Assembly (NCBI GenBank): GCA_019311115.1
Contig: JAFDDB010000005.1
Location: 1-63,511 of the forward strand
Direction: 5' to 3'
Source: Deltaproteobacteria bacterium
Lineage (GTDB): Bacteria > Myxococcota_A > UBA9160 > SZUA-336
Length of the DNA stretch: 63,511 nt
Shown here: piece after piece, positions 6,374 to 28,088 of the stretch
Layout of the letters: each line of letters opens with the position of its first letter
Position numbering within the stretch: position 1 is the stretch's first letter
Made by a program: the position numbers and the translations under genes
The notes under the pieces: model-generated
What the model was told of the DNA's origin: nothing
The model's input: the letters and a program-made list of their open reading frames with translations, nothing else
The model's database searches: none

Positions 6374-6841
6374 GGGGTTGCCTTCCGTCGCTCCGCGAAG
6401 AACGGTCCAGGGTCAGGGATCAGGACACAGTAGCGAGGCCAGTTACTTCCGCGATTGACTTCGCACGAACGGTATACCAGATGGCCGCCGCGGGGGGAAC
6501 CTGGACTTTGACTCGGCCACCCGCGGCGCCCGTGGCCCGGGTGCCTGACCAGCCCCCGTCTACGCCAGCCGATACTCCCGCGGCACCCGCAGACCGGGCA
6601 AAGGGGACACGGACTCGATGGGCGACCACGCGCCAGGCGATCACGACCGACACGACCTCGGTCGAGACGATCTTCGACCCCGACGCTACGCCGATCCCAC
6701 CGGCGTACCGGCCCGATCCGCTGGTCGGGTACACGTACGTTCCGGGCAACGACTCGGGGGACCCTGGCGACGAGCGACGAGGAGACCCTCGCCTGGCTGA
6801 TTCAAGACGCGTTCCCCGGCCACTGCGGCGCGAGATCCGGG

Positions 6842-17985: not shown

Positions 17986-19233
17986 CTACTCCAGGTAGCC
18001 GACCGCCCGCAGGCGCTCGCGGTCCTCGTCGCTCAGTCCGGGCTCGGTCGTGCTCTCGGGCGCGTCCCGCGGCACCCAGAGCCTCTTGCGCGCCAACAGG
18101 CGGCTGAGCGCCGCCATGCGCTTGCGATGCGTACGCGCGATGACCGCGTGCCGGCCCGCGACGTCGCGCGTCTCGCCGGGGTCCTGCTTCAGGTTGAAGA
18201 GGTAGCTCCGCTTGCTGGTGCGCCGCTGCAGGGTCTTCCAGTCCCCGCGCCGGTAGGTCTGCCAGGCCATCTCGGTCAGGAACAGCTCGTTCGGGTCCAG
18301 CACGGTCTGCGGCTCGTCCGCGTTCCGCTCGGTGCCGGCCAACTCGAGCAGCATCCCGTACAGGTCTTCGCTGCGCACCACCGGACGCGAGTTCTCGAAC
18401 CGCGTCGGCGAGACGATCAGCGGGATCTGCACCAGGTAGTCGAACGACGGGTTCCCCTCGTGACCGCGCAGTCCGGCGACGGGATGCTTCTCGCCGCGGC
18501 GCTCGCCGTGGTCAGACGTCAGCACGACGACCGCGCCTTCGAGCAGGTTCCCGGCGCGCAGCAGGTCGAGCAGCCCTCCGACGCCCGCGTCGGCGCGCGC
18601 GACGCCGCGCGCGTACGACTCGTCCTGCATGCGGTAGTCGTGCGCGTCCATGTAGTGGACGTACAGGAAGAAACGGTCGCTCTCGCGGCGGGCCAGCGCG
18701 CGCGCCACCGCCGCATTGACGGCGGAGGCGTCGTGAGCTCCGCGCACGTCCTGCCAGTCGTCGAAGCCGCGCTCGAATCCGGCTCCCGCAAACAGCAGCG
18801 CGTTCGACTGCACGCCGAGCGTCGCGTAGCCGGTCCGCTTCATGTGAGTGCCGAGCGTCGGCAGGTGCGCGGGAATGCAGCTCCGGTCGGGCGGACGCCC
18901 GAACCTCGCCAGGCCGCACCAGGTGCGGCCGTTCCAGTGGATCGGCGACCGGCGGCGGCCGCTCTCGATGCTCGGAGTCCGCCCGGTGAAGAGCGCGCCC
19001 ATCGACATGGTCGTCATGTGGAACGAGGACAGGGCGTTGTCGAAGCGCTGGCCGCTCTCGGCCAGCGAGTCGATCTGCGGCGTGGGACGTTTCGCGCCGT
19101 AGGCCGACACGTAGTCGCGCCGCAGCGTGTCGATCATGACCAGCACGATGCGCTCGGGCGGCGCCGGCGACGGTGTGCAGCCGGCCCAGAGCAGCGCCGC
19201 AACCAACAGCGCGGGCGTCCAGCGCGCTATCAC
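17986..19233 (-). CDS. sulfatase-like (alkaline phosphatase superfamily) lipoprotein
   Basis: GTG start overlaps the upstream stop; WAGC lipobox; IDTLRRD, HYMDAH, TSDHGE and LFNLKQDPGE motifs; RLRAVGYLE tail. Confidence 0.85.
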   Translation of the reverse strand: MIARWTPALLVAALLWAGCTPSPAPPERIVLVMIDTLRRDYVSAYGAKRPTPQIDSLAESGQRFDNALSSFHMTTMSMGALFTGRTPSIESGRRRSPIHWNGRTWCGLARFGRPPDRSCIPAHLPTLGTHMKRTGYATLGVQSNALLFAGAGFERGFDDWQDVRGAHDASAVNAAVARALARRESDRFFLYVHYMDAHDYRMQDESYARGVARADAGVGGLLDLLRAGNLLEGAVVVLTSDHGERRGEKHPVAGLRGHEGNPSFDYLVQIPLIVSPTRFENSRPVVRSEDLYGMLLELAGTERNADEPQTVLDPNELFLTEMAWQTYRRGDWKTLQRRTSKRSYLFNLKQDPGETRDVAGRHAVIARTHRKRMAALSRLLARKRLWVPRDAPESTTEPGLSDEDRERLRAVGYLE

Positions 19234-20570
19234 TCCACGTACCCCAGGCTCTTGAGCGCCTTCTGCGTCTCGGAGTCCATGGCGCGCGGTGCGCCCTGGG
19301 CCAGCGGAGCGGGCAGGCTCGCCAGGTACTCGTCGAGAGACGCCGCCATGGCCGCCGCGCGCTCGGGATCGCGCGCCGCCAGGTCGATCCGCTCGTGCGG
19401 GTCGCGCGCCAGGTCGTATACGGCGAGCCGTCCCCGGTCCTTGCGGACCAGCTTGTGGCCGTCCGCGATCAGCGCCTGCACGTCGCCGTCGGCGTTCGTC
19501 ATGAACGGCAGCGGGTAGACCTCGGCGACGACGGGGTGGCCGAGCCGGCCGAGCGCGTTGCCTTGGATGTCGTCGGGGATGGGCAGGCCGAGCGCGTCCA
19601 ACAGGGTGGGGAGCACGTCGGTCAGCTGTACGCGCTCGTCGCTCCGCTCCGGCGCGTGCCCCGTGCCGGGGTACTTGACGATGAAGGGGATGGCGAGCAC
19701 CGCGCGCTCCAGTGCCGTGCCGTGGCCCTGGATGCCGTCCTCCCACAGCGCCTCGCCGTGGTCCGCGGTCACGATGATCCAGGTGTCGTCGAACAGGTCG
19801 AGGTCCCGCAGCCCGTCGAGCAGCTTCCCGACCCAGAAGTCCATGAAGCGGATCTCCCCGTCGTACAGCCAGCGCGCGCGCGTACGGATGCGCTGCTCGC
19901 GCGGCATGTCGCTCGTCAGCCGTGGCGGCGCGCCCCGAAAACGTGCCGGCGGATCGTACGGGCCGTGCGGGTCGAAGTAGTTCAGGAACAGGAAGAAGGG
20001 CCGGTCCCGGGGGCGCGAGCGCAGCCAGTCGAGCGCGGCTCCGGTCACGCTCGGCGCGAGACGCCCGTGGGTCGGGTCGATCCCGCCGTCGTCGTAGTGG
20101 TCGAAGCCCAGGTCGAGTCCCGTCACGCGCTTGAGCCACGGGCCGGCCACGATGCCCGCCGTCGCGTAGCCGTGCTCGCCGAGCAGCAGTGGCAGCGGGC
20201 GCTCGTGGGGGCTGAGTCCGCGCGCGCGGTAGCGCTCGAACGGTCCCTCGATCGCGTCGGCCAGCGAGATGGGCCCGTCCACGTCGAGGCGCGCGCCGTG
20301 ACTGCTCGTGAGCTTGCCGGTGAGCAGCGTCGCGTGACCCGGGAGCGTCCAGCTCGTGGTGGACACAGCGCGCGTGTAGACCACCGACACGGCGGCGAGC
20401 GCGTCGAGGCTCGGGCTCGTCTGCTCACCGTATCCGTAGCAGCCCAGGCGGTCCGCGCGCGTCGTATCCAGGCTGATCAACAGGATGTGCGGATCCTGCG
20501 GTCTTCCCGAACACGCGCACAGCGCCAGCAACAGGGCCGCCGTGGCGATCGTTTTGTCTGGCAGCCCCAC
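19230..20570 (-). CDS. sulfatase-like (alkaline phosphatase superfamily) lipoprotein
   Basis: LDTTRADRL, WTLPGHATLLTG, YFDPHGPY, YDGEI, TADHGE and LKSLGYVE motifs. Confidence 0.9.
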   Translation of the reverse strand: MGLPDKTIATAALLLALCACSGRPQDPHILLISLDTTRADRLGCYGYGEQTSPSLDALAAVSVVYTRAVSTTSWTLPGHATLLTGKLTSSHGARLDVDGPISLADAIEGPFERYRARGLSPHERPLPLLLGEHGYATAGIVAGPWLKRVTGLDLGFDHYDDGGIDPTHGRLAPSVTGAALDWLRSRPRDRPFFLFLNYFDPHGPYDPPARFRGAPPRLTSDMPREQRIRTRARWLYDGEIRFMDFWVGKLLDGLRDLDLFDDTWIIVTADHGEALWEDGIQGHGTALERAVLAIPFIVKYPGTGHAPERSDERVQLTDVLPTLLDALGLPIPDDIQGNALGRLGHPVVAEVYPLPFMTNADGDVQALIADGHKLVRKDRGRLAVYDLARDPHERIDLAARDPERAAAMAASLDEYLASLPAPLAQGAPRAMDSETQKALKSLGYVE

Positions 20571-20582
20571 TGGACGTCGTGG

Positions 20583-21737
20583 TCAGGCGACCTTCACGGT
20601 CTCGGGAAGCTTGCGGGTCAGGATGTCGGCGGCTTGTTCGACCAGGTCGGCGACGATCTGGCCGGCGGGCTTGATGTCGTGGATCAGGCCGGAGACCTGG
20701 CCGGCGAACGGCGCCACGTACTCGGTCTTGCCCGCCTGGTTGAACATGTCGACCATCGCCGACGCCAGCAGGGCCTGCAGCGGGAAGGGCAGCGCCTCGA
20801 GGCCCGACTCCTCCCACAGGTCGTGGAAGCGGTTGTAGGTCGTGCGCGAGGTCTTTCCCGTGTAGATGTAGGTGCGGCGCGTGTCCTCGTCGGTGGCGTC
20901 CACCATGTGCTGCTTCTGCACGTCGAGCGCTCCGCCCTCGTCGGACGCCAGGAAGCGCGTGCCGACCCAGACTCCGATGCAGCCCATGGCGAGCGCCGCA
21001 GCCACGCCGCGGCCGTCGCCGATCCCCCCCGCGGCGAGCACCGGTGTCGGCGCGCAGGCGTCGATGGCCTGCGGCCAGAGCGCCATCGAGCCGACGCGGC
21101 CGGTGTGGCCTCCGCCCTCGTGCCCCTGCGCGACGACCAGGTCCGAGCCCGACCGCGCGATGCGGCCGGCGTTCTTGGAGTTGCCCGCGATGCCCAGCAC
21201 CTTCATGCCCGCGGCGTGCGCGGACTCGACCATGAAGCCGGGGTCGCCGAGGCCGGCGCAGAAGAGCGGCACCTGCTGCTCGATGCACGCTTCGACCGCG
21301 GCGTGCGGCCGCGACACGGTCGATCCGGCGCTGATCGCCACCTGGATGTCCGGCAGGCCGAAGTCCTCCTTCACCTTCATCATCCACTCGAAGTGCGCGC
21401 GCGGCAGCGCCGCGAGCGCGTCGGCGAGCGGGATGTTGCCGGCGTCGCGAACGGGCGCGTCGCCCTGCCGGACCTGCTGTGCGGGGAGCAGCAGGTCCAC
21501 GCCGAACGGCTTGTCGGTGAGCTTGCGGATCTCCTGGATCTTCTCGCGCAGCTCCTCGACGGAGTAGCCGGCTCCGCCGAGCACTCCCAGGCCTCCGGCC
21601 TCGGAGACGGCCACCACCAGCCCGACCGGCGCACCGGTTTCCTCGCCGATCAGGCTCGGTCCCATTCCCGCGCTCAGGATCGGGTACTCGATCCCCAGCA
21701 TGTCGCAGAGCGGCGTTCTGAGTGTCCGTCGTGCCAA
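20583..21737 (-). CDS. nitronate monooxygenase / FabK-like flavin oxidoreductase
   Basis: PILSAGMG, VSEAGGLG, QGHEGGGH, AAGGIGDG and VGTRFL motifs; TTG start after GGAGG. Confidence 0.9.
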   Translation of the reverse strand: MARRTLRTPLCDMLGIEYPILSAGMGPSLIGEETGAPVGLVVAVSEAGGLGVLGGAGYSVEELREKIQEIRKLTDKPFGVDLLLPAQQVRQGDAPVRDAGNIPLADALAALPRAHFEWMMKVKEDFGLPDIQVAISAGSTVSRPHAAVEACIEQQVPLFCAGLGDPGFMVESAHAAGMKVLGIAGNSKNAGRIARSGSDLVVAQGHEGGGHTGRVGSMALWPQAIDACAPTPVLAAGGIGDGRGVAAALAMGCIGVWVGTRFLASDEGGALDVQKQHMVDATDEDTRRTYIYTGKTSRTTYNRFHDLWEESGLEALPFPLQALLASAMVDMFNQAGKTEYVAPFAGQVSGLIHDIKPAGQIVADLVEQAADILTRKLPETVKVA

Positions 21738-21862
21738 GGGGGCCTCCTCGCAGGGATTTGCGTGGGGCGGCGAGCTGCCGTGGTGCCCGCACTCTACCCC
21801 AGCAGAGACGCCGAGAGGCGCGTCCCTCGGCACGCCTCGGGCGTCGGGGCGCGAAGAAGTGC

Positions 21863-23170
21863 TCAGTCGTGCGAGCAGGCGGGGCGCGCGTCGGTCACGC
21901 CGAAGCGCTCGGGGAAGCGGGCGTCGTACGCGATGGTGCCGCGCGACGGCGGGCCGAAGCGGTCGGGGTCGAGGGCGCGTAACGCCTCGGCGGCCAGGAT
22001 GCCGCCGCAGATCATGTTGGTGCCCGGCAGCGTCAGGGCCTGCGCCAGCGAGCAGGTGGCGCGGTCGCTCTCTTCGTCGGCCAGCTCGGCGAGCCGCGGA
22101 ATGCGGTGTGCCAGGCACGCCGTCTCGCCGGGCAAGTAGACGCGGTGCTGCGCCGCGAGCGGGGAGCTGCCCGCCTCGGCGAGCGGCACGCCGTCGGCTA
22201 GCGAGCAGTCGTTCAGGTAGCGGCGCGCGGCAAAGGTGTCGGGACAGGCGATGCGCAGCGACGGCCGGCCGAGCCGTACCAGCCGGTCCTCGTAGCGGAC
22301 CGGCATCGGCCGTAGGTCGACGCCGGCGTCGGTCAGGACCGCCAGCTTCTCCGCCATCACGACCGCCTTCGGCCGGCCGATGTCGTCGGCCGAGAAGGAG
22401 GGCTGGATCGCCAGGTTCTCGGGGCCCACCCGGTCGAAGTCGAAGATGCGCAGCTCGCAGCGGTCGCCGAGCAGCGGAGCCAGCGACTCCAGCAGGTGCG
22501 TGCCCACGCCGCCGGCGCCGATCACGTCGATGATCGCGTCCTCGACGAACGCGTCCTTCCAGTCGCTCGCGTCCGTGCCCGGCGCCGGCGTCCGGTCTTC
22601 GCCCGCCACGTCGAAGCGGACCTCGGCCGCGGCGGGCGCAGCGTCCACGAGCCGTCCCGCGCCGATCAGCGCCTCTTGGAGCAGCAGCCCCGCGGCGATC
22701 CGCGCGACCGGCGCGATGGGCTCGGCCGCGGTCCGGACGGCCGCGGCTTCGTCGACGGCCAGCGCCAGCATGGACACGCCGGTCGAGGTCCAGTCGAGCG
22801 AGGCGAACGCGCTCGTGTCGTTCGCGAAGTGGGCGCAGCGGCGGCGCACCTGGGGAGAGCTTCCCAGGTGCAGGACGACGCCGAAGGTCCCGTCGTCGGC
22901 GCGTCCCAGGTCGCCCAGGTACAGCGTGGGCATCGACTCGAACTCGGCTGCGGGCATCAGCGTCGACAGGTCGCCGACGGACGGGCCCGACGCGGCGAGC
23001 TGGACCTGGCCGAAGCCCAGCGCTTGCAGGCCGCGGCAGAGCGCCCACGCCGGGTGGTCCCACGGAAGGCCGCGAGGCGAGTCGTCGAGCACGACCAGCA
23101 CGCCGGTCTCGGCGATGCGCAGCGCGTCGGCGCCGGCCTGCGCCAGGCGGTCTTCGGGGCGGGCCGTCAC
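21863..23170 (-). CDS. E1-like ThiF-family adenylyltransferase with N-terminal degenerate ThiF-like domain (435 aa)
   Basis: GAGGVG (218-223), DFD..GPENLAIQ, IGRPK, CPDTFAARRYLND, candidate catalytic Cys373 (RATCS). GTG start overlaps the upstream TGA. Confidence 0.88.
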   Translation of the reverse strand: MTARPEDRLAQAGADALRIAETGVLVVLDDSPRGLPWDHPAWALCRGLQALGFGQVQLAASGPSVGDLSTLMPAAEFESMPTLYLGDLGRADDGTFGVVLHLGSSPQVRRRCAHFANDTSAFASLDWTSTGVSMLALAVDEAAAVRTAAEPIAPVARIAAGLLLQEALIGAGRLVDAAPAAAEVRFDVAGEDRTPAPGTDASDWKDAFVEDAIIDVIGAGGVGTHLLESLAPLLGDRCELRIFDFDRVGPENLAIQPSFSADDIGRPKAVVMAEKLAVLTDAGVDLRPMPVRYEDRLVRLGRPSLRIACPDTFAARRYLNDCSLADGVPLAEAGSSPLAAQHRVYLPGETACLAHRIPRLAELADEESDRATCSLAQALTLPGTNMICGGILAAEALRALDPDRFGPPSRGTIAYDARFPERFGVTDARPACSHD

Positions 23171-23919
23171 AGTGTCTCCGCGAGGGCAGGTGCGGGGGTG
23201 GGGTCGAACACGACCTTCTCGGCGATCTCCAACGCCAGCCGGCGCCGCAGCGCGTCGCGCTGCGACGTGGACAGGATGACGCGGCCGGCGCTCTCGAGTT
23301 GCGCGGGGATCTCGCGGACCTGGCGGCGGCCGCACATTGGACAGGTGTCGACGCGCGCCGCGTAGATCTCGTAGTCGCGCTCGCGGTTCACGATCAGCGA
23401 AAAGCAGACCGCGTACTCCTGGTGCAGGTTGCGGATCACGCCGCCGGTAAAGGCGGCGTCGCGCCAGAGCTGGACCATGCCCGCGCAGCCGCAGCGCGGG
23501 TGTCCGGGGCCGATCGGCACGGCCTCGGTCCAGCTGATCGCGGTGGACACCTGGTCGATGAACACGCCGGTCAGGAACTCGCGATCGACCACCGAGGCGG
23601 TGCACGGCCCGGGATGCCGGTGCACGAACGTGATCGGCACCAGGCGCCGCCCCATGCGCGCGGAGAGGGTCTCGATCTCGCGCCGCATCCGCAGCACGTC
23701 GTGCCCGGACTGCTCGACCGTCGAGACGGTCACGCGCTGGCCGCGCAGCAGCGGCGTGGCGATCACGTGGAACGGGTCGTCCTCGGTCGCCAGGCCGAGC
23801 ATCGCGTACTCGGACCTGGGGCTGGCGAAGTCGTAGGCCAGGATGTCGGCGGCCAGGAAGCAGCGCTCGAGCGCGAGCGCGTCGAATGACAGCGCGGCGC
23901 CTGCGTACAGGTCGAACAT
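23167..23919 (-). CDS. JAB/MPN+ (JAMM) metallopeptidase, 250 aa
   Basis: E37 (SEYAMLGL) ... H100-R-H102-x6-S109-xx-D112. ATG overlaps the upstream TGA (TGATG). Confidence 0.8.
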   Translation of the reverse strand: MFDLYAGAALSFDALALERCFLAADILAYDFASPRSEYAMLGLATEDDPFHVIATPLLRGQRVTVSTVEQSGHDVLRMRREIETLSARMGRRLVPITFVHRHPGPCTASVVDREFLTGVFIDQVSTAISWTEAVPIGPGHPRCGCAGMVQLWRDAAFTGGVIRNLHQEYAVCFSLIVNRERDYEIYAARVDTCPMCGRRQVREIPAQLESAGRVILSTSQRDALRRRLALEIAEKVVFDPTPAPALAETL

Positions 23920-24995
23920 CAGAACGGGACCTCCTCTTCGTGGCGCGCCGTGCGCTCGCGCCACATGCGGTGGAACTCCGGCCGGTCGGTCGCCAGGATC
24001 GCCCCGGCGTCGAGCCACTGGACGACGGCCTCGGCGTCGCTGAAGCGCTTCGACAGCAGGCGCTGGTACTGCGCGAGCGTGCCCATGCAGAGGCCGGCGC
24101 GCACCGGTTGGCCCGACCGTCCCCACAGGCCGCGCTCGCTGCGCGACAGCGACGGCGCGAGGGAAAGACGTTCGGCCCGGGTGCGGCCCCGCACGTTCAG
24201 CGCGACGAACACGGTCCCCTGTCCGGTGCGAACCGGCAGGGGACCGCGCACCAGCAGCCAGGACCCCCCGCAGTACTGGAGCTGGTGTTGGTCGTCGCGG
24301 TGGAAGACGCTGCGGCTGCCGCGTTTCTCGGGCTCGTACAGGCTGAGGATCGCGTGCACGGCGCCGGAGAACTCCTTCAGCCGCGTCTTCGTGCCCTCGT
24401 CGGACATCACCGCGACGCGCATGTGCGCGCGCAGGGCGACCCCCGCGCGACGGACGAACTCGTTCAGCGACTCGGTGCGGTCGAGGCAGTAGCGGTAGGT
24501 GTGGCCGTTCAGCTCGACGTGGAAGTCGGACTTCCGCTTGCGCGTGGCCCGCTCGATCGGGATCACCGACCGCGCCAGGATCGCGCACGGCGCGCCGAGC
24601 GACTCGGCGAGATCCTCGGCGTACGGCTCCAACGCCAGGTGGTCGTCGACCGCCGCCTCGAGCTCGCGGGCACGGCGCGCCAGTTCGTCGAGCGTCCCCG
24701 GCGCGCCCGCGGGGGGCGCGCCGGAGAGGGACTTCAGGTAGGGGAGCAGCTCCGCCAGGCAGAACTGCAGGTCGTGGACCCGGGCCAGCAGCGGCCCGGC
24801 GTCGCCGAGCACGTCCGGGTGGTACTGCGCGCGGCCGGGGCGGATCCCCGACACCGTCTGCGCGTAGTCCCCGACCGATCCGACGCGACGGACCTTCGCC
24901 TTGGGCCCGGGGCCCGCGGAGAAGACGCCCCCTTCGAGGAGGAACGTCCTTTCGCGCGGGCCGCGGGCGAAGCGCGGGCGTTCCAGGTCGATCAC
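23919..24995 (-). CDS. 358-aa protein with putative divergent C-terminal E2/UBC-like domain
   Basis: GTG start overlaps the upstream TGA; strong GC3 bias. Beta-rich segment, then GLCMG (Cys303), then an amphipathic helix (AEAVVQWLDAGAILA). Function inferred from context. Confidence 0.6.
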   Translation of the reverse strand: MIDLERPRFARGPRERTFLLEGGVFSAGPGPKAKVRRVGSVGDYAQTVSGIRPGRAQYHPDVLGDAGPLLARVHDLQFCLAELLPYLKSLSGAPPAGAPGTLDELARRARELEAAVDDHLALEPYAEDLAESLGAPCAILARSVIPIERATRKRKSDFHVELNGHTYRYCLDRTESLNEFVRRAGVALRAHMRVAVMSDEGTKTRLKEFSGAVHAILSLYEPEKRGSRSVFHRDDQHQLQYCGGSWLLVRGPLPVRTGQGTVFVALNVRGRTRAERLSLAPSLSRSERGLWGRSGQPVRAGLCMGTLAQYQRLLSKRFSDAEAVVQWLDAGAILATDRPEFHRMWRERTARHEEEVPF

Positions 24996-25351
24996 GCACC
25001 GCCCCCGCGGTAGCTCTCGGAGATCATGATCGTGTACTCGTCGGTGTCGGACTTCTGGTCGCCGCCGGGGCCGTGCACGACCGTGTCGTCCAGCGAGATC
25101 GGCTGCCCGGTCGCGCTCGAGCCCTGCACCACCTCGATGTCGATCTGGCGCGTGCTGCGCAGCACCTCGCCCACCACCGCGGCGGTGCGCGACGCCGGGC
25201 CGCGCACCTGGCGGCACTCGATCACGCGGTTTACGAGCTGGCGGGCCGACAGGCCCTCGACCGTTCGGCGAGCGAAGCGGCCACCGCAGCTGGCGCCGAG
25301 TCCGTAGGCCACGCCGATCGTGACCTCTCCGGGGGTCTTCGAAATCCTCAT
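24992..25351 (-). CDS. putative ubiquitin-like (beta-grasp) protein precursor, 119 aa
   Basis: Small first gene of the E2-like/JAB/E1 operon. Terminal strand YTIMISE followed by SYRGGGA; purine-rich RBS AGAGGCAGGA. Confidence 0.7.
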   Translation of the reverse strand: MRISKTPGEVTIGVAYGLGASCGGRFARRTVEGLSARQLVNRVIECRQVRGPASRTAAVVGEVLRSTRQIDIEVVQGSSATGQPISLDDTVVHGPGGDQKSDTDEYTIMISESYRGGGA

Positions 25352-25503
25352 GGTTCCTGCCTCTCTTCTGTTTGGAGTTGTGCGATTCCCTCAGTCGTGA
25401 GAGATTCGGTACATCGGGGCGGGTGAGACGTTCACGGCCGATCCGGGTACAGGAGCCATGGTGCCATGCGGCAAGTGAAATGCAAGATTGAAATCATCAC
25501 TAA

Positions 25504-25516
25504 AATCAAATAGTTA
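25504..25516 (+). promoter_or_regulatory. IHF consensus site in divergent promoter region
   Basis: AATCAAATAGTTA matches WATCAANNNNTTR exactly, with an A/T-rich 5' flank. Confidence 0.6.
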
Positions 25517-25595
25517 CGACAGTTTGCCGAGTCTGGCAGGCTTCCGGGGGGACGGGTTCCACGGTTTGGTCGTGTCGCTATGCGGTGGTGACTCT

Positions 25596-25686
25596 ATTTC
25601 TACAATCGATTACTGATCGACATAGATCATGGAATGTTTTGGGATCCGAACTACAGAACCGACAATTCTGATGGAATCGTAGAAAT
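25596..25686. promoter_or_regulatory. inverted repeat ATTTCTAC(A/G)AT (25596-25606 / 25676-25686), candidate operator half-sites
   Basis: 10/11 inverted match within an AT-rich island upstream of the regulator gene. Confidence 0.4.
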
Positions 25687-25721
25687 GCAAGGGTCGAGAT
25701 CGACGAGGAGGGACAGGATCC

Positions 25722-26855
25722 ATGACCGGCGGGCAGGTGAGCGACACGACGGAGACGAGCAACGACGGCGGAACGGGGCGGGCCAAGGCCAGCGAAGAGG
25801 GGCGCAAGCCGCGGAAGAAGCGGGCCAACGCCAAGCGGGGCGACCTGGAGCGCCCCGAGCTCGAGGCGGTGGTCTGTGACTACTTCTGCCACCAGGGGCT
25901 GACGGCCCCGGAAATCCAGAAGAGCGTGCGCAAGGAGTTCGGCATCCGGATCACGCGCGAGGAGGCCTACCGCTTCGTGCGCAAGGCTGCGCGCAGCGGG
26001 TGGATCACGTACACGCCGCCGCAGGACTACGCCCTGCACCGCGGCATCAAGGAGCAGCGCTACCCCTGGCTGCAGGGTGTGTCGGTGGTCGAGACCGGCA
26101 ACTGCGAGGGCGTGGCGTCGCGCGGCGCGCAGATGCTGATGGAACTGCTGCAGCAGCACTACGCCGGCAAGGAGGTACACGTCGGTTTCTCCGGCGGATA
26201 CGGGCTGCGCAAGCTGGCGATGGCGTTCAGCCGCATGTTGCGCGAGCCGACCGAGCGGCTGCCGGAGCGCATCGTCTTCCACGCAATGGTCGCCGGCTTC
26301 GACGTCGACGAGCCGACCACCGATCCGAACGCGTTCTTCGCGTACTTCGTGCAGGATCCGGCGATGCAGGTCGAGACGTCGTTCGTCGGACTCCACGCGC
26401 CGGCGATGGCGCGCCCGGGTCTGCTCGAGGAGCTGACCGACCTGCCGGGCATCCGCGAGGCGTACCAGCGCTCGCACGAGATCAACGTGATCGTCAGCGG
26501 GGCCAGCTGCTGGAGCGACGACCACTCGCCGCTGCGCCGCTACCTCGACGTGGCGGGCGAGCCGCTCGGCGCCCTCGGAGAGGCGGGCTGCGTCGGGGAC
26601 TTCCTGTGGCAGCCGGTGGGCACCGAGGGTCCCCTCGAGATGGACACCGCGCTCAAGGCGATGACCCTCAAGCAGCTCGACGAGGTCGGCACCTTCGTCG
26701 AAGAGAAGAACCACGTGCTGCTCGTCGCCGGCCCGTGCAGCCAGTGCCACCATCCCAAGACCGAGGTCGTCAACGCAATCCTCAACCAGGACCGCCAGCT
26801 CATCACGCACCTGGCCATCGACAGCCGCTGCGCCCGCGACCTGCTCGCGCTCTAA
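25722..26855 (+). CDS. SorC/DeoR(CggR/LsrR)-family transcriptional regulator (HTH plus sugar-phosphate-binding domain)
   Basis: HTH-like QGLTAPEIQKSVRKEFGIRITREEAYRFVRKAARSGWI; VGFSGG, LHAPA, GCVGDFL and ITHLAIDSRCA motifs; GAGGAGGG RBS region. Confidence 0.8.
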   Translation: MTGGQVSDTTETSNDGGTGRAKASEEGRKPRKKRANAKRGDLERPELEAVVCDYFCHQGLTAPEIQKSVRKEFGIRITREEAYRFVRKAARSGWITYTPPQDYALHRGIKEQRYPWLQGVSVVETGNCEGVASRGAQMLMELLQQHYAGKEVHVGFSGGYGLRKLAMAFSRMLREPTERLPERIVFHAMVAGFDVDEPTTDPNAFFAYFVQDPAMQVETSFVGLHAPAMARPGLLEELTDLPGIREAYQRSHEINVIVSGASCWSDDHSPLRRYLDVAGEPLGALGEAGCVGDFLWQPVGTEGPLEMDTALKAMTLKQLDEVGTFVEEKNHVLLVAGPCSQCHHPKTEVVNAILNQDRQLITHLAIDSRCARDLLAL

Positions 26856-26873: not shown

Positions 26874-27272
26874 ATGAAGGACGGCGTGGTGGCGGTGCTG
26901 GTGCGCGGCGACCGCGTGCTGTTCATCCGGCGCGCGGAAGCCGTGCCCTACGGCGGCTACTGGTGTCCGCTGAGCGGAAAGGTCGAGCCCGGCGAGAGCC
27001 AGGCCCACGCCGTGGTCCGCGAGGTGCGCGAAGAGGTCGGGCTCCGGGTGCGCGCCGTGCGCAAGGTCTGGGAGTGCCCGACCGAGGGCGCAGACTACCT
27101 GCTGCACTGGTGGTTGGTCGAAGAGGACGGGGGAGAGTTGGTCCTCGAGCCGCGCGAGGTCGCGGATGCGGGCTGGTTCACGCGCGACGAGGTCCACGCG
27201 CTGACGCCGACCTTCGACGTGGACCGGGTCTTCGTGGACACGATCCTTCCCGGCCTGAAGGACGGCGGGTAG
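26874..27272 (+). CDS. NUDIX hydrolase
   Basis: Nudix box GKVEPGESQAHAVVREVREEVG; GGAGG RBS. Confidence 0.92.
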   Translation: MKDGVVAVLVRGDRVLFIRRAEAVPYGGYWCPLSGKVEPGESQAHAVVREVREEVGLRVRAVRKVWECPTEGADYLLHWWLVEEDGGELVLEPREVADAGWFTRDEVHALTPTFDVDRVFVDTILPGLKDGG

Positions 27273-27296: not shown

Positions 27297-28088
27297 ATGA
27301 TCGAGGGCTACGCAGAGTCGGAGTTCACCTGGGACGGCGTCACGCGCCCGGTCTACCGCCGCGGGCAGGGGCCGGGCGTCATCGTCATGCACGAGATCCC
27401 GGGCATCCACCCCACGGTCATCCGCTTCGCGAACTGGGTGGTGGACGCGGGCTTCACCGTCGTCATGCCCGAGCTGATGGGCCAGGCCAACCGCGCAGTG
27501 ACTCCCGGCTACACGCTCGGCTCCATGCTGCGCGCCTGCATCCGACGCGAGTTCGCCGTGCTGGCTGCGCACCGGTCGAGCCCGATCACCGACTGGCTGC
27601 GCGCGCTGTGCCGCGAGACGCACCGGGACCTGGGCGGTGCGGGCGTCGGCGCGGTGGGCATGTGCCTGACCGGGAACTTCGCGCTCGCCATGATGCTGGA
27701 GCCGAGCCTGCTGGCCCCGGTGTTGTCACAGCCGTCGATGCCGTTCCCGCTCGGCAAGACGCGCCGGGCCGCGCTCCACCTGTCGCCCGAGGAGCTCGAG
27801 GCGGTGCGCGAGCGCGCGCGCCAGGGCTGTCCGGTGCTGGGACTCCGCTTCACCGAAGACCGCTGGGTGCCGCCCGAGCGGTTCGAGACGCTACGCCGCG
27901 AGATCGGCGACCGCTTCGAGGCGATCGAGATCGACTCGGCGGTGAGCCGGCCCAGCGAGAACCCGGCCGGACCGCACTCGGTGTTGACCGAGGACCTGCG
28001 CGACGAGGACGGTCACCCCACCGTCGCCGCGCGCGACCGCGTGCTCGAATTCTTGCGCGAGCGGCTCGTAGACGGCCCTCGGCCCTAG
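27297..28088 (+). CDS. dienelactone hydrolase family protein
   Basis: HEIPG, GMCLTG (Cys nucleophile) and HSVLT motifs. Confidence 0.88.
   Translation: MIEGYAESEFTWDGVTRPVYRRGQGPGVIVMHEIPGIHPTVIRFANWVVDAGFTVVMPELMGQANRAVTPGYTLGSMLRACIRREFAVLAAHRSSPITDWLRALCRETHRDLGGAGVGAVGMCLTGNFALAMMLEPSLLAPVLSQPSMPFPLGKTRRAALHLSPEELEAVRERARQGCPVLGLRFTEDRWVPPERFETLRREIGDRFEAIEIDSAVSRPSENPAGPHSVLTEDLRDEDGHPTVAARDRVLEFLRERLVDGPRP

Follow-up and report, generated by a model that had tools for sequence, protein, structure and literature searches.

What is made by the tight cluster of four genes at positions 21863-25351 of contig JAFDDB010000005.1 from a Deltaproteobacteria bacterium (assembly GCA_019311115.1): a bacterial ubiquitination-like pathway, or something else built from similar parts? 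The whole stretch analysed, referred to here as the window, is 63,511 nucleotides (nt) long and constitutes a 63.5-kb contig of a 262-contig, 4.17-Mb assembly with about 70% G+C. The cluster encodes a small ubiquitin-like protein (Ubl), a protein resembling ubiquitin-conjugating enzymes (E2-like), a JAMM/JAB metallopeptidase (JAB) and a ThiF-family activating enzyme (E1). It is judged reasonably probable that these proteins form a four-component Ubl-conjugation cassette, operating by a thioester relay like that of the bacterial Bil system and composed of protein families that current models do not recognise. This reading draws on gene structure, conservation, motifs and predicted folds, and all steps of the mechanism set out below are inferred from these.

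All four genes lie on the minus strand and are chained by stop/start overlaps, as the original prediction had described. The Ubl gene (24992-25351) encodes 119 amino acids (aa) with the C-terminal end SESYRGGGA. It is followed by the E2-like gene (23919-24995; 358 aa, start codon GTG), the JAB gene (23167-23919; 250 aa) and the E1 gene (21863-23170; 435 aa, start codon GTG). The overlaps, read from the sequence, amount to 4 bases between Ubl and E2-like (GTGA, 24995-24992), 1 base between E2-like and JAB (within TGATG, 23921-23917) and 4 bases between JAB and E1 (GTGA, 23170-23167).

The same arrangement recurs elsewhere. Pattern scans yielded two loci in species-representative genomes, L002 in a Myxococcota metagenome-assembled genome (MAG) and L003 in a Pirellulales MAG, and six in metagenomes (L005-L010). 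When searched by tblastn with the window proteins, these eight other loci were found to carry the same genes in the same order at 27-59% protein identity, in agreement with the claim that the four genes co-occur elsewhere as Ubl-E2-like-JAB-E1. The JAB gene lies directly 3' of the E2-like gene in all eight, and the E1 gene comes next in all seven whose contig runs on, L006 stopping after JAB. L006 and L009 start within the E2-like gene; among the six loci having upstream sequence, the Ubl gene lies directly 5' of the E2-like gene in five. L007 and L009 were counted as one because they are near-identical in the cassette region. As judged from sequence, the shared gene order is beyond what chance would be expected to give. 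In addition, in two relatives, P0045 (615 aa) and P0092 (631 aa), the E2-like protein is fused N-terminally to the JAMM peptidase, which argues that both proteins act together. The L005 contig (1-7832) was also noted to carry about 450 nt of unrelated sequence 5' of its cassette and, at 6462-6746, an unrelated 94-aa open reading frame (ORF) with the C-terminal end WPYGGA.

The E1 is the component most readily recognised, and its assignment as a two-domain ThiF-family enzyme is borne out by both the Pfam match and the alignments. Residues 214-403 match Pfam ThiF (PF00899; 3.2e-26, 92 bits against a cut-off of 28.1 bits), and no other Pfam domain, and no rhodanese, was found in the protein. The best sequence match in the PDB was the NEDD8 E1 UBA3 (2.4e-9), with further matches to MoeB, the SUMO E1, UBA7, ThiF, MccB (5e-6) and UBA5, and the best NCBIfam scores were to ThiF/MoeB-type models. 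In an alignment of 69 sequences (the query and 68 of the 86 matches, partial ones being left out), the G218xG220xxG223 loop, D244, D246, N252, K268, R306, D311 and R316 are invariant, as are C352, C373, C432 and H434; R8 and H355 each occur in 66 of the 69. The crossover segment from C352 to T380, inside which C373 lies, measures 27-30 residues throughout. C373 is placed at what we take to be the crossover-loop cysteine of MoeB and ThiF, and C352-x-x-H355 together with C432-x-H434 presumably stands where the structural zinc site has two CxxC pairs. An N-terminal extra domain of about 200 aa, with conserved R8, G13 and P40, precedes the C-terminal active domain. The genome has a separate canonical ThiF/MoeB on another contig (C206; 2.4e-87), and the cassette enzyme is therefore an extra E1.

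The small protein had been proposed to be a beta-grasp protein, and this is upheld by its AlphaFold 2 (AF2) model, its structural matches and its GG-tail alignment. The model (predicted local distance difference test score, pLDDT, 84.4) combines a two-strand hairpin with two helices and three more strands. An all-against-representatives structural search returned mainly beta-grasp proteins of the ubiquitin-like and sulfur-carrier kinds, headed by SAMP1 (score 6.8; root-mean-square deviation 2.4, 75 residues aligned) and including BubA (6.2), RnfH (6.2), a multi-ubiquitin protein (6.1) and BilA (5.7; 82 of 83 residues aligned), with CysO and MoaD likewise among the matches. In an alignment of 13 sequences, made of the query, seven database matches and five loci, the relatives have SE[SP]Y[RVC]GG in common, followed by 0-17 variable residues, and the GG at positions 116-117 is nearly invariant. 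This variable tail was seen in 12 of the 13, the thirteenth being a truncated fragment. After the GG, L003 has no further residue, the window GA, L002 VAR and L010 TRS, and L008 and L007 have 14 and 17 unrelated residues, respectively. Going by the model, the Ubl is a predicted beta-grasp protein with a GG tail of the processed type.

The claim of a peptidase with a full JAMM motif was likewise confirmed by alignment. E37, H100, H102, S109 and D112, together the complete E...HxH...S..D motif, are invariant in all 23 sequences aligned (the query and 22 of 28 matches, near-duplicates and short ones being left out). The protein has an extra cysteine-containing C-terminal part, of which C193 and C196 are also invariant in the 23. 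A sequence-profile search of the PDB with this protein gave nothing. For the ESM Atlas model of the exact protein (predicted template modelling score, pTM, 0.71), the nearest named neighbours were BRCC36 and Prok-JAB clusters, with TM-scores of 0.55-0.63 that compare predicted models on both sides. The protein is accepted as a very divergent JAMM peptidase.

Across 47 near-full-length sequences of the E2-like protein (the query and 46 of 76 non-self matches, excluding fragments, the two JAB fusions and the weakest rows), invariance is limited to 4 of 358 residues, namely L83, C303, G305 and Q309. C303 is present in 47 of 47 and C137 in 40 of 47; no invariant histidine was found in these sequences, the best being H342 (36 of 47). 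The residues singled out in the original prediction, namely E1 C373, E2-like C303 and JAB H100, H102 and D112, are thus correctly numbered and conserved in relatives. The AF2 model (pLDDT 91.3, pTM 0.85) begins with a small sheet, a helical bundle, a second small sheet and a long helical hairpin, followed by a helix at 200-219. It continues with a strand meander at 223-267, a long loop with C303, a short helix at 307-313 and two long helices within 320-355. From helix 200-219 onward this is what we take to be the order of elements of the UBC/E2 domain. In the model, then, the C-terminal stretch of about 160 residues has a UBC-like topology, and the N-terminal stretch of about 200 residues is of unassigned fold. 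A structural search with the model gave two weak matches, both to E2 chains and each with more than 100 residues aligned.

Other searches with the E2-like protein gave little. A PDB sequence-profile search returned coiled-coil noise only, and an ESM Atlas feature search gave scores of at most 0.82 to viral hypothetical clusters, one of which has Prok-E2_D in 39% of its members; this cluster is a lead only. In the phylum, Prok-E2_A was matched in a single genome of 251, Prok-E2_B was above its cut-off in none of 401 genomes, and an hhalign comparison of the E2-like family with the single Prok-E2_A sequence covered 7 columns at E 0.38, which is meaningless. That sole Prok-E2_A match among the 251 genomes (L041; G268:C88:7972-8436) lies inside an open frame of 982 aa, which may encode a multi-module E2/E1/JAB protein like those of type 6a.

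Together, these components suggest the following relay. The JAMM peptidase would cut off the variable tail after Ubl Gly117 (here Gly-Ala), and the exposed Gly-Gly carboxylate would be adenylated by the C-terminal active domain of the E1, whose N-terminal domain may replace the second subunit of a ThiF dimer and contribute Arg8. The Ubl would then pass as a thioester to Cys373 of the short crossover loop, be handed to Cys303 of the E2-like protein and go onward to targets. Because no E3 is encoded, the N-terminal domain of about 200 residues in the E2-like protein is the likely target-recognition part. The JAMM peptidase may in addition strip conjugates. In the sub-clade to which the window belongs, a divergent SorC-like regulator probably couples expression to a small-molecule signal. 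The cassette may serve defence, stress or proteostasis.

How does the cassette relate to the known systems? Among the four proteins, only the E1 was recognised in scans with Pfam, NCBIfam, PADLOC and PHROGs, which means that none of the current models for Bil, Bub or CBASS includes the cassette. Novelty had been put forward with the proviso that a confident match to a Bil model would overturn it, and no such match emerged, so that novelty is not refuted; the PADLOC model of BilD gave E 0.0032 over residues 216-321 of the E1 only, and with the BilA-C models the Ubl, E2-like protein and JAB were unmatched at E <= 1. The closest relation is with Bil (BilABCD of Type I and Type II, operon families 6d and 6c/CEHH), which shares the gene order Ubl-E2-JAB-E1 and the lack of an E3. 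The order Ubl-E2-DUB-E1 had been likened to bilABCD from the window, and it was seen in the window and the related loci alike, the order of bilABCD being that given in the Bil paper. According to the Bil paper, BilA has a conserved glycine and a short variable tail processed by BilC. The cassette Ubl is similar, in that both are single beta-grasp proteins with a conserved glycine and a short variable tail. That paper also describes BilD as an IAD-AAD protein with Arg9 supplied from the IAD, a helical CYS insertion of about 80 residues, and a zinc site whose four cysteines are divided between crossover loop and C-terminus. The cassette E1 resembles it in outline in its N-terminal extra domain followed by an active adenylation domain, in R8 as against Arg9, and in a metal-type site split between crossover loop and C-terminus. 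It differs from BilD in that its crossover segment is only 27-30 residues long in place of the helical CYS domain, and in that its site is Cys/His/Cys/His, not four cysteines. Further differences are that the CEHH-type E2 has a conserved histidine by its cysteine, whereas the cassette E2-like protein has no invariant one, and that the latter, at 358 aa, carries an N-terminal domain of about 200 residues, unlike Bil. A CapH/CapP pair, an HTH-WYL (CapW/BrxR-type) domain and defence-island genes, as associated with Bil, were not seen among the scanned neighbours of the window.

The Bub system (6E / DUF6527) was considered and ruled out. In the Bub paper this pathway is described as forming tyrosine or serine oxyesters without catalytic cysteines in E1 or E2, with a DUF6527 serine protease and with Ubl-E2 or JAB-E1/E2-E1 fusions. 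In the cassette, by contrast, E1 C373 and E2-like C303 are invariant and the genes are separate, and no DUF6527 was seen among the scanned neighbours of the window, L008 and L010. Type II CBASS (Cap2/Cap3) and 6A-MBL have the E1/E2/JAB chemistry of bacteria in common with the cassette, and the P-loop region of the E1 matched Cap2-type models weakly (1.4e-4 and 0.0071; PADLOC and NCBIfam). However, they act through an E2-E1 fusion on a cyclase or MBL protein and without a Ubl, whereas the cassette has separate genes and a Ubl, with no cyclase among the scanned neighbours; both were ruled out, there being no E2-E1 fusion. The sulfur-carrier and SAMP systems (CysO-Mec+-MoeZ, QbsE-QbsD and SAMP/UbaA/HvJAMM1) likewise combine a GG-ended beta-grasp protein, a ThiF-type E1 and a JAMM peptidase, but the cassette lacks a rhodanese domain and linked biosynthetic genes, and it has a fourth conserved protein with an invariant cysteine and a UBC-like topology. 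Of the families 6a-6e in the 2006 survey of prokaryotic ubiquitin-like systems, none described in the part consulted has the make-up of the cassette. Nor was this make-up found described in the literature searched, whose scope did not extend to the operon lists supplementing the Bil and Bub papers, which could in principle already contain members. On the comparison of protein sequences, the cassette is a BilABCD-ordered variant that appears to fall outside the current Bil, Bub and CBASS models.

Several results weigh against a conjugation cassette. With the full E2-like model, Foldseek found nothing in the PDB at E <= 0.001, and none of the 47 members matched any Pfam E2 family; of the proposed E2 assignment, the model topology and two weak structural matches speak for it, whereas Foldseek and all sequence profiles gave nothing. 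For the peptidase, none of the 23 members matched any Pfam JAB family at E <= 1, PF14464 detected other JAB genes across the genome and missed that of the cassette, and an hhalign comparison with 29 Prok-JAB sequences brought the motifs into register at only E 0.26. In the E1, an internal hhalign comparison of the N- and C-terminal domains was weak (E 0.079, 31 columns, one helix-strand element), and position 255 was found to be L, V, I, T, S or M and not arginine across the 69 sequences; this is presumably the position of the arginine in the 'NLxRQ' motif. L005 has E2-like, JAB and E1 genes, yet no Ubl was found within its 7.8 kb by tblastn and profile search. Finally, neither a target nor an E3 was identified.

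Several observations would suit an E2-independent modifier of the archaeal SAMP/UbaA or Thermus TtuB/TtuC type, in which the E1 conjugates by itself and the 358-aa protein, not being a transfer enzyme, would serve as the main target or else as an adaptor or scaffold. The Ubl has its best structural match in SAMP1, neither the profiles nor Foldseek picked out an E2, and L005 keeps the three enzymes without a nearby Ubl. Moreover, a crossover of 27-30 residues is not a mobile CYS domain for hand-over; such a short loop is as in UBA5- or MoeB-like enzymes. On the other hand, a Cys303 retained in all 47 sequences and flanked by G305 and Q309 suits a catalytic site better than a target site, the E2-like gene sits between Ubl and JAB as BilB does, the fusion to JAB suits an enzyme pair, and two E2 chains with more than 100 aligned residues each are among the structural matches. 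An E1 acting alone is considered unlikely. The same weakness of the E2 fold evidence, together with the preference of the E1 for ThiF/MoeB-type models in NCBIfam, leaves some room for a sulfur-carrier pathway resembling CysO/Mec+/MoeZ or QbsE/QbsD. Here the Ubl, trimmed by JAB and adenylated by the E1, would become a thiocarboxylate and pass its sulfur to a small molecule, with the 358-aa protein as a new persulfide relay or an enzyme that uses sulfur by way of Cys303. Trimming of a GG-tailed carrier by a JAB protein is known for CysO and QbsE. However, the E1 has no rhodanese domain, the genome has its separate canonical ThiF/MoeB, and neither ThiG, MoaE, CysM nor another biosynthetic partner was found among the scanned neighbours of the window, L008 and L010, conservation across loci being limited to the four genes. 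Furthermore, 4 invariant residues of 358 are very few for an enzyme, and the protein has a UBC-like topology; sulfur transfer is accordingly rated as improbable. Least credible of all, and regarded as highly improbable, is a modification of the MccB type, in which the E1 would adenylate the small protein for a non-protein adduct such as a nucleotide or other moiety. MccB is among the PDB matches of the E1 and the canonical-motif arginine is missing, but the substrate would be a conserved 119-aa beta-grasp protein with a GG end and not a short peptide, no conserved export or immunity genes lie beside the cassette, and the only Pfam match of the E1 is ThiF (214-403). MccB-type enzymes have a peptide-clamp domain.

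If the four genes are taken as a Bil-like conjugation cassette, how widespread is it? Among 1.84 billion cluster representatives, relatives of the E2-like protein form 77 clusters at E <= 0.001, self included, 36 of them at E <= 1e-30. The JAB family comprises 28 clusters and the Ubl family 8, self included. The E1 family numbers 86 at E <= 1e-10 and is discrete, since every match has at least 286 bits and 39-77% identity. When the genome was searched along with 40 relatives, the window's own copy of the E2-like gene was the sole match (1 of 41), and so it was when 400 more genomes from the phylum were covered (1 of 401); the latter count is a floor, since the first look was stricter there. 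Viral contigs, phage records and plasmids yielded no E2-like relatives, and plasmids no E1 at 1e-8. Four DNA sequencing runs matched, all of them marine sediment metagenomes (best word share 0.44), with no RNA run among the matching runs. The cassette is thus sporadic in distribution and rare, occurring so far in uncultured Myxococcota, Planctomycetota and sediment metagenomes. One full-length member of the E1 family, P0202 (39% identity, 98% coverage), is labelled 'MAG: ThiF family adenylyltransferase [Candidatus Hodarchaeales archaeon]', an Asgard lineage. Contamination during binning, gene transfer and a real archaeal cassette could each account for the label, and, if genuine, this E1 would bear on the origin of eukaryotic-type E1-E2 relays.

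Divergent from the Ubl gene on the plus strand lies a gene for a 377-aa protein (25722-26855), probably a SorC/DeoR-type regulator with a sugar-phosphate-binding-type domain. The original prediction had called it a dedicated SorC-type regulator. In support, homologues with 48-52% identity were found by tblastn to lie divergently beside the Ubl gene in L002, L007 and L008, three of the five other Ubl-bearing loci, and the L002 homologue (48% identity) matches PF04198 Sugar-bind (1.7e-9, 37.7 bits against a cut-off of 27). The window copy, on the other side, has no Pfam match at E <= 10 and no DNA-binding domain detected, and L003 and L010 have unrelated genes at this position. The SorC-like regulator thus accompanies one sub-clade only. 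The spacer between regulator and Ubl genes is 370 bp long with 51% G+C, and contains on the minus strand at 25484-25524 a conserved element, GCAAACTGTCGTAAC...ATTTTA, which is a candidate promoter/operator. Its consensus, GCAAA(A)CTGT(G)CGTAAC followed by A+T-rich sequence, is similar in the spacers of the window, L002, L007 and L008, and was aligned with MAFFT for the window, L007 and L008, L002 being left out. A simple scan of 21700-25800 gave no sigma-70 consensus site.

According to Pfam, the neighbours in the window include Nudix, dienelactone hydrolase, carboxylesterase, nitronate monooxygenase, sulfatases, a major facilitator superfamily transporter, luciferase-like monooxygenase, enoyl-CoA hydratase, GST and GMC oxidoreductase. 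The observation that genes for thiamine, molybdenum cofactor and cysteine synthesis, a cyclase, YcaO and an E3 are not adjacent holds for the Pfam-scanned neighbours. In PADLOC, only Nudix (26874-27272) matched among nine neighbours, as candidate singlet PDC-S07 (8.5e-14). Nudix models are generic. No relative of this gene was found in the eight other loci by tblastn. The suggested antiphage role did not gain support, given these metabolic neighbours, no defence island in the window, and E2-like relatives found neither on viral contigs and phages nor on plasmids; as a whole, the context speaks clearly neither for a defence role nor against it.

The Discussion of the Bub paper counts Type II CBASS/Pycsar/MBL, Bil I/II and Bub as the ubiquitination-related pathways so far characterised in bacteria. 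All of these have changed the view of the origin of ubiquitin signalling. It is tentatively suggested, as a possibility on the doubtful side, that the cassette stands for a further, undescribed family beyond Bil, Bub and CBASS/MBL, which would be marked by a minimal E1 without CYS insertion, a Cys2His2-type site, an E2 fused to its own target-recognition domain of about 200 residues and, in at least one clade, control by a SorC-like repressor that senses a metabolite. On this same reading, the setting among metabolic genes in place of defence islands would mean that the cassette may tag host proteins on a metabolic or stress signal rather than phage proteins. With its pared-down E1 and an E2-like protein of unusual size, outside obvious defence islands, the cassette makes a compact test case. 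It poses the questions of how little machinery a thioester relay needs, how an E2 chooses targets without an E3, and whether Ubl tagging in bacteria extends beyond phage defence. As three of the four proteins are undetected by defence and domain libraries, current defence-finding surveys would miss the cassette.

Some minor observations concern the flanking genes. Both the window (27297-28088) and the distantly related L010 (3737-4645) have a gene of the dienelactone hydrolase family upstream of the cassette, within 2-3 kb, at 26% identity between the two; this co-location may be coincidence. In L008 (10177-13995), the gene immediately after E1 encodes a PIG-L (LmbE-like) deacetylase, and the ORF after E1 in L007 and L009 ends in the same residues as that gene. 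The PIG-L gene of L008 is followed by an IrrE-like M78 peptidase and HTH_3 pair facing a divergent ResIII helicase. This pair, which we liken to the CapP/CapH arrangement as we understand it, more probably belongs with the helicase than with the cassette. Lastly, two adjacent sulfatase-like ORFs occupy 17986-20570 of the window: the one at 19230-20570 has a Pfam Sulfatase match, and it is overlapped by a long ORF in another frame (17986-20139) with a sulfatase-like C-terminal half.

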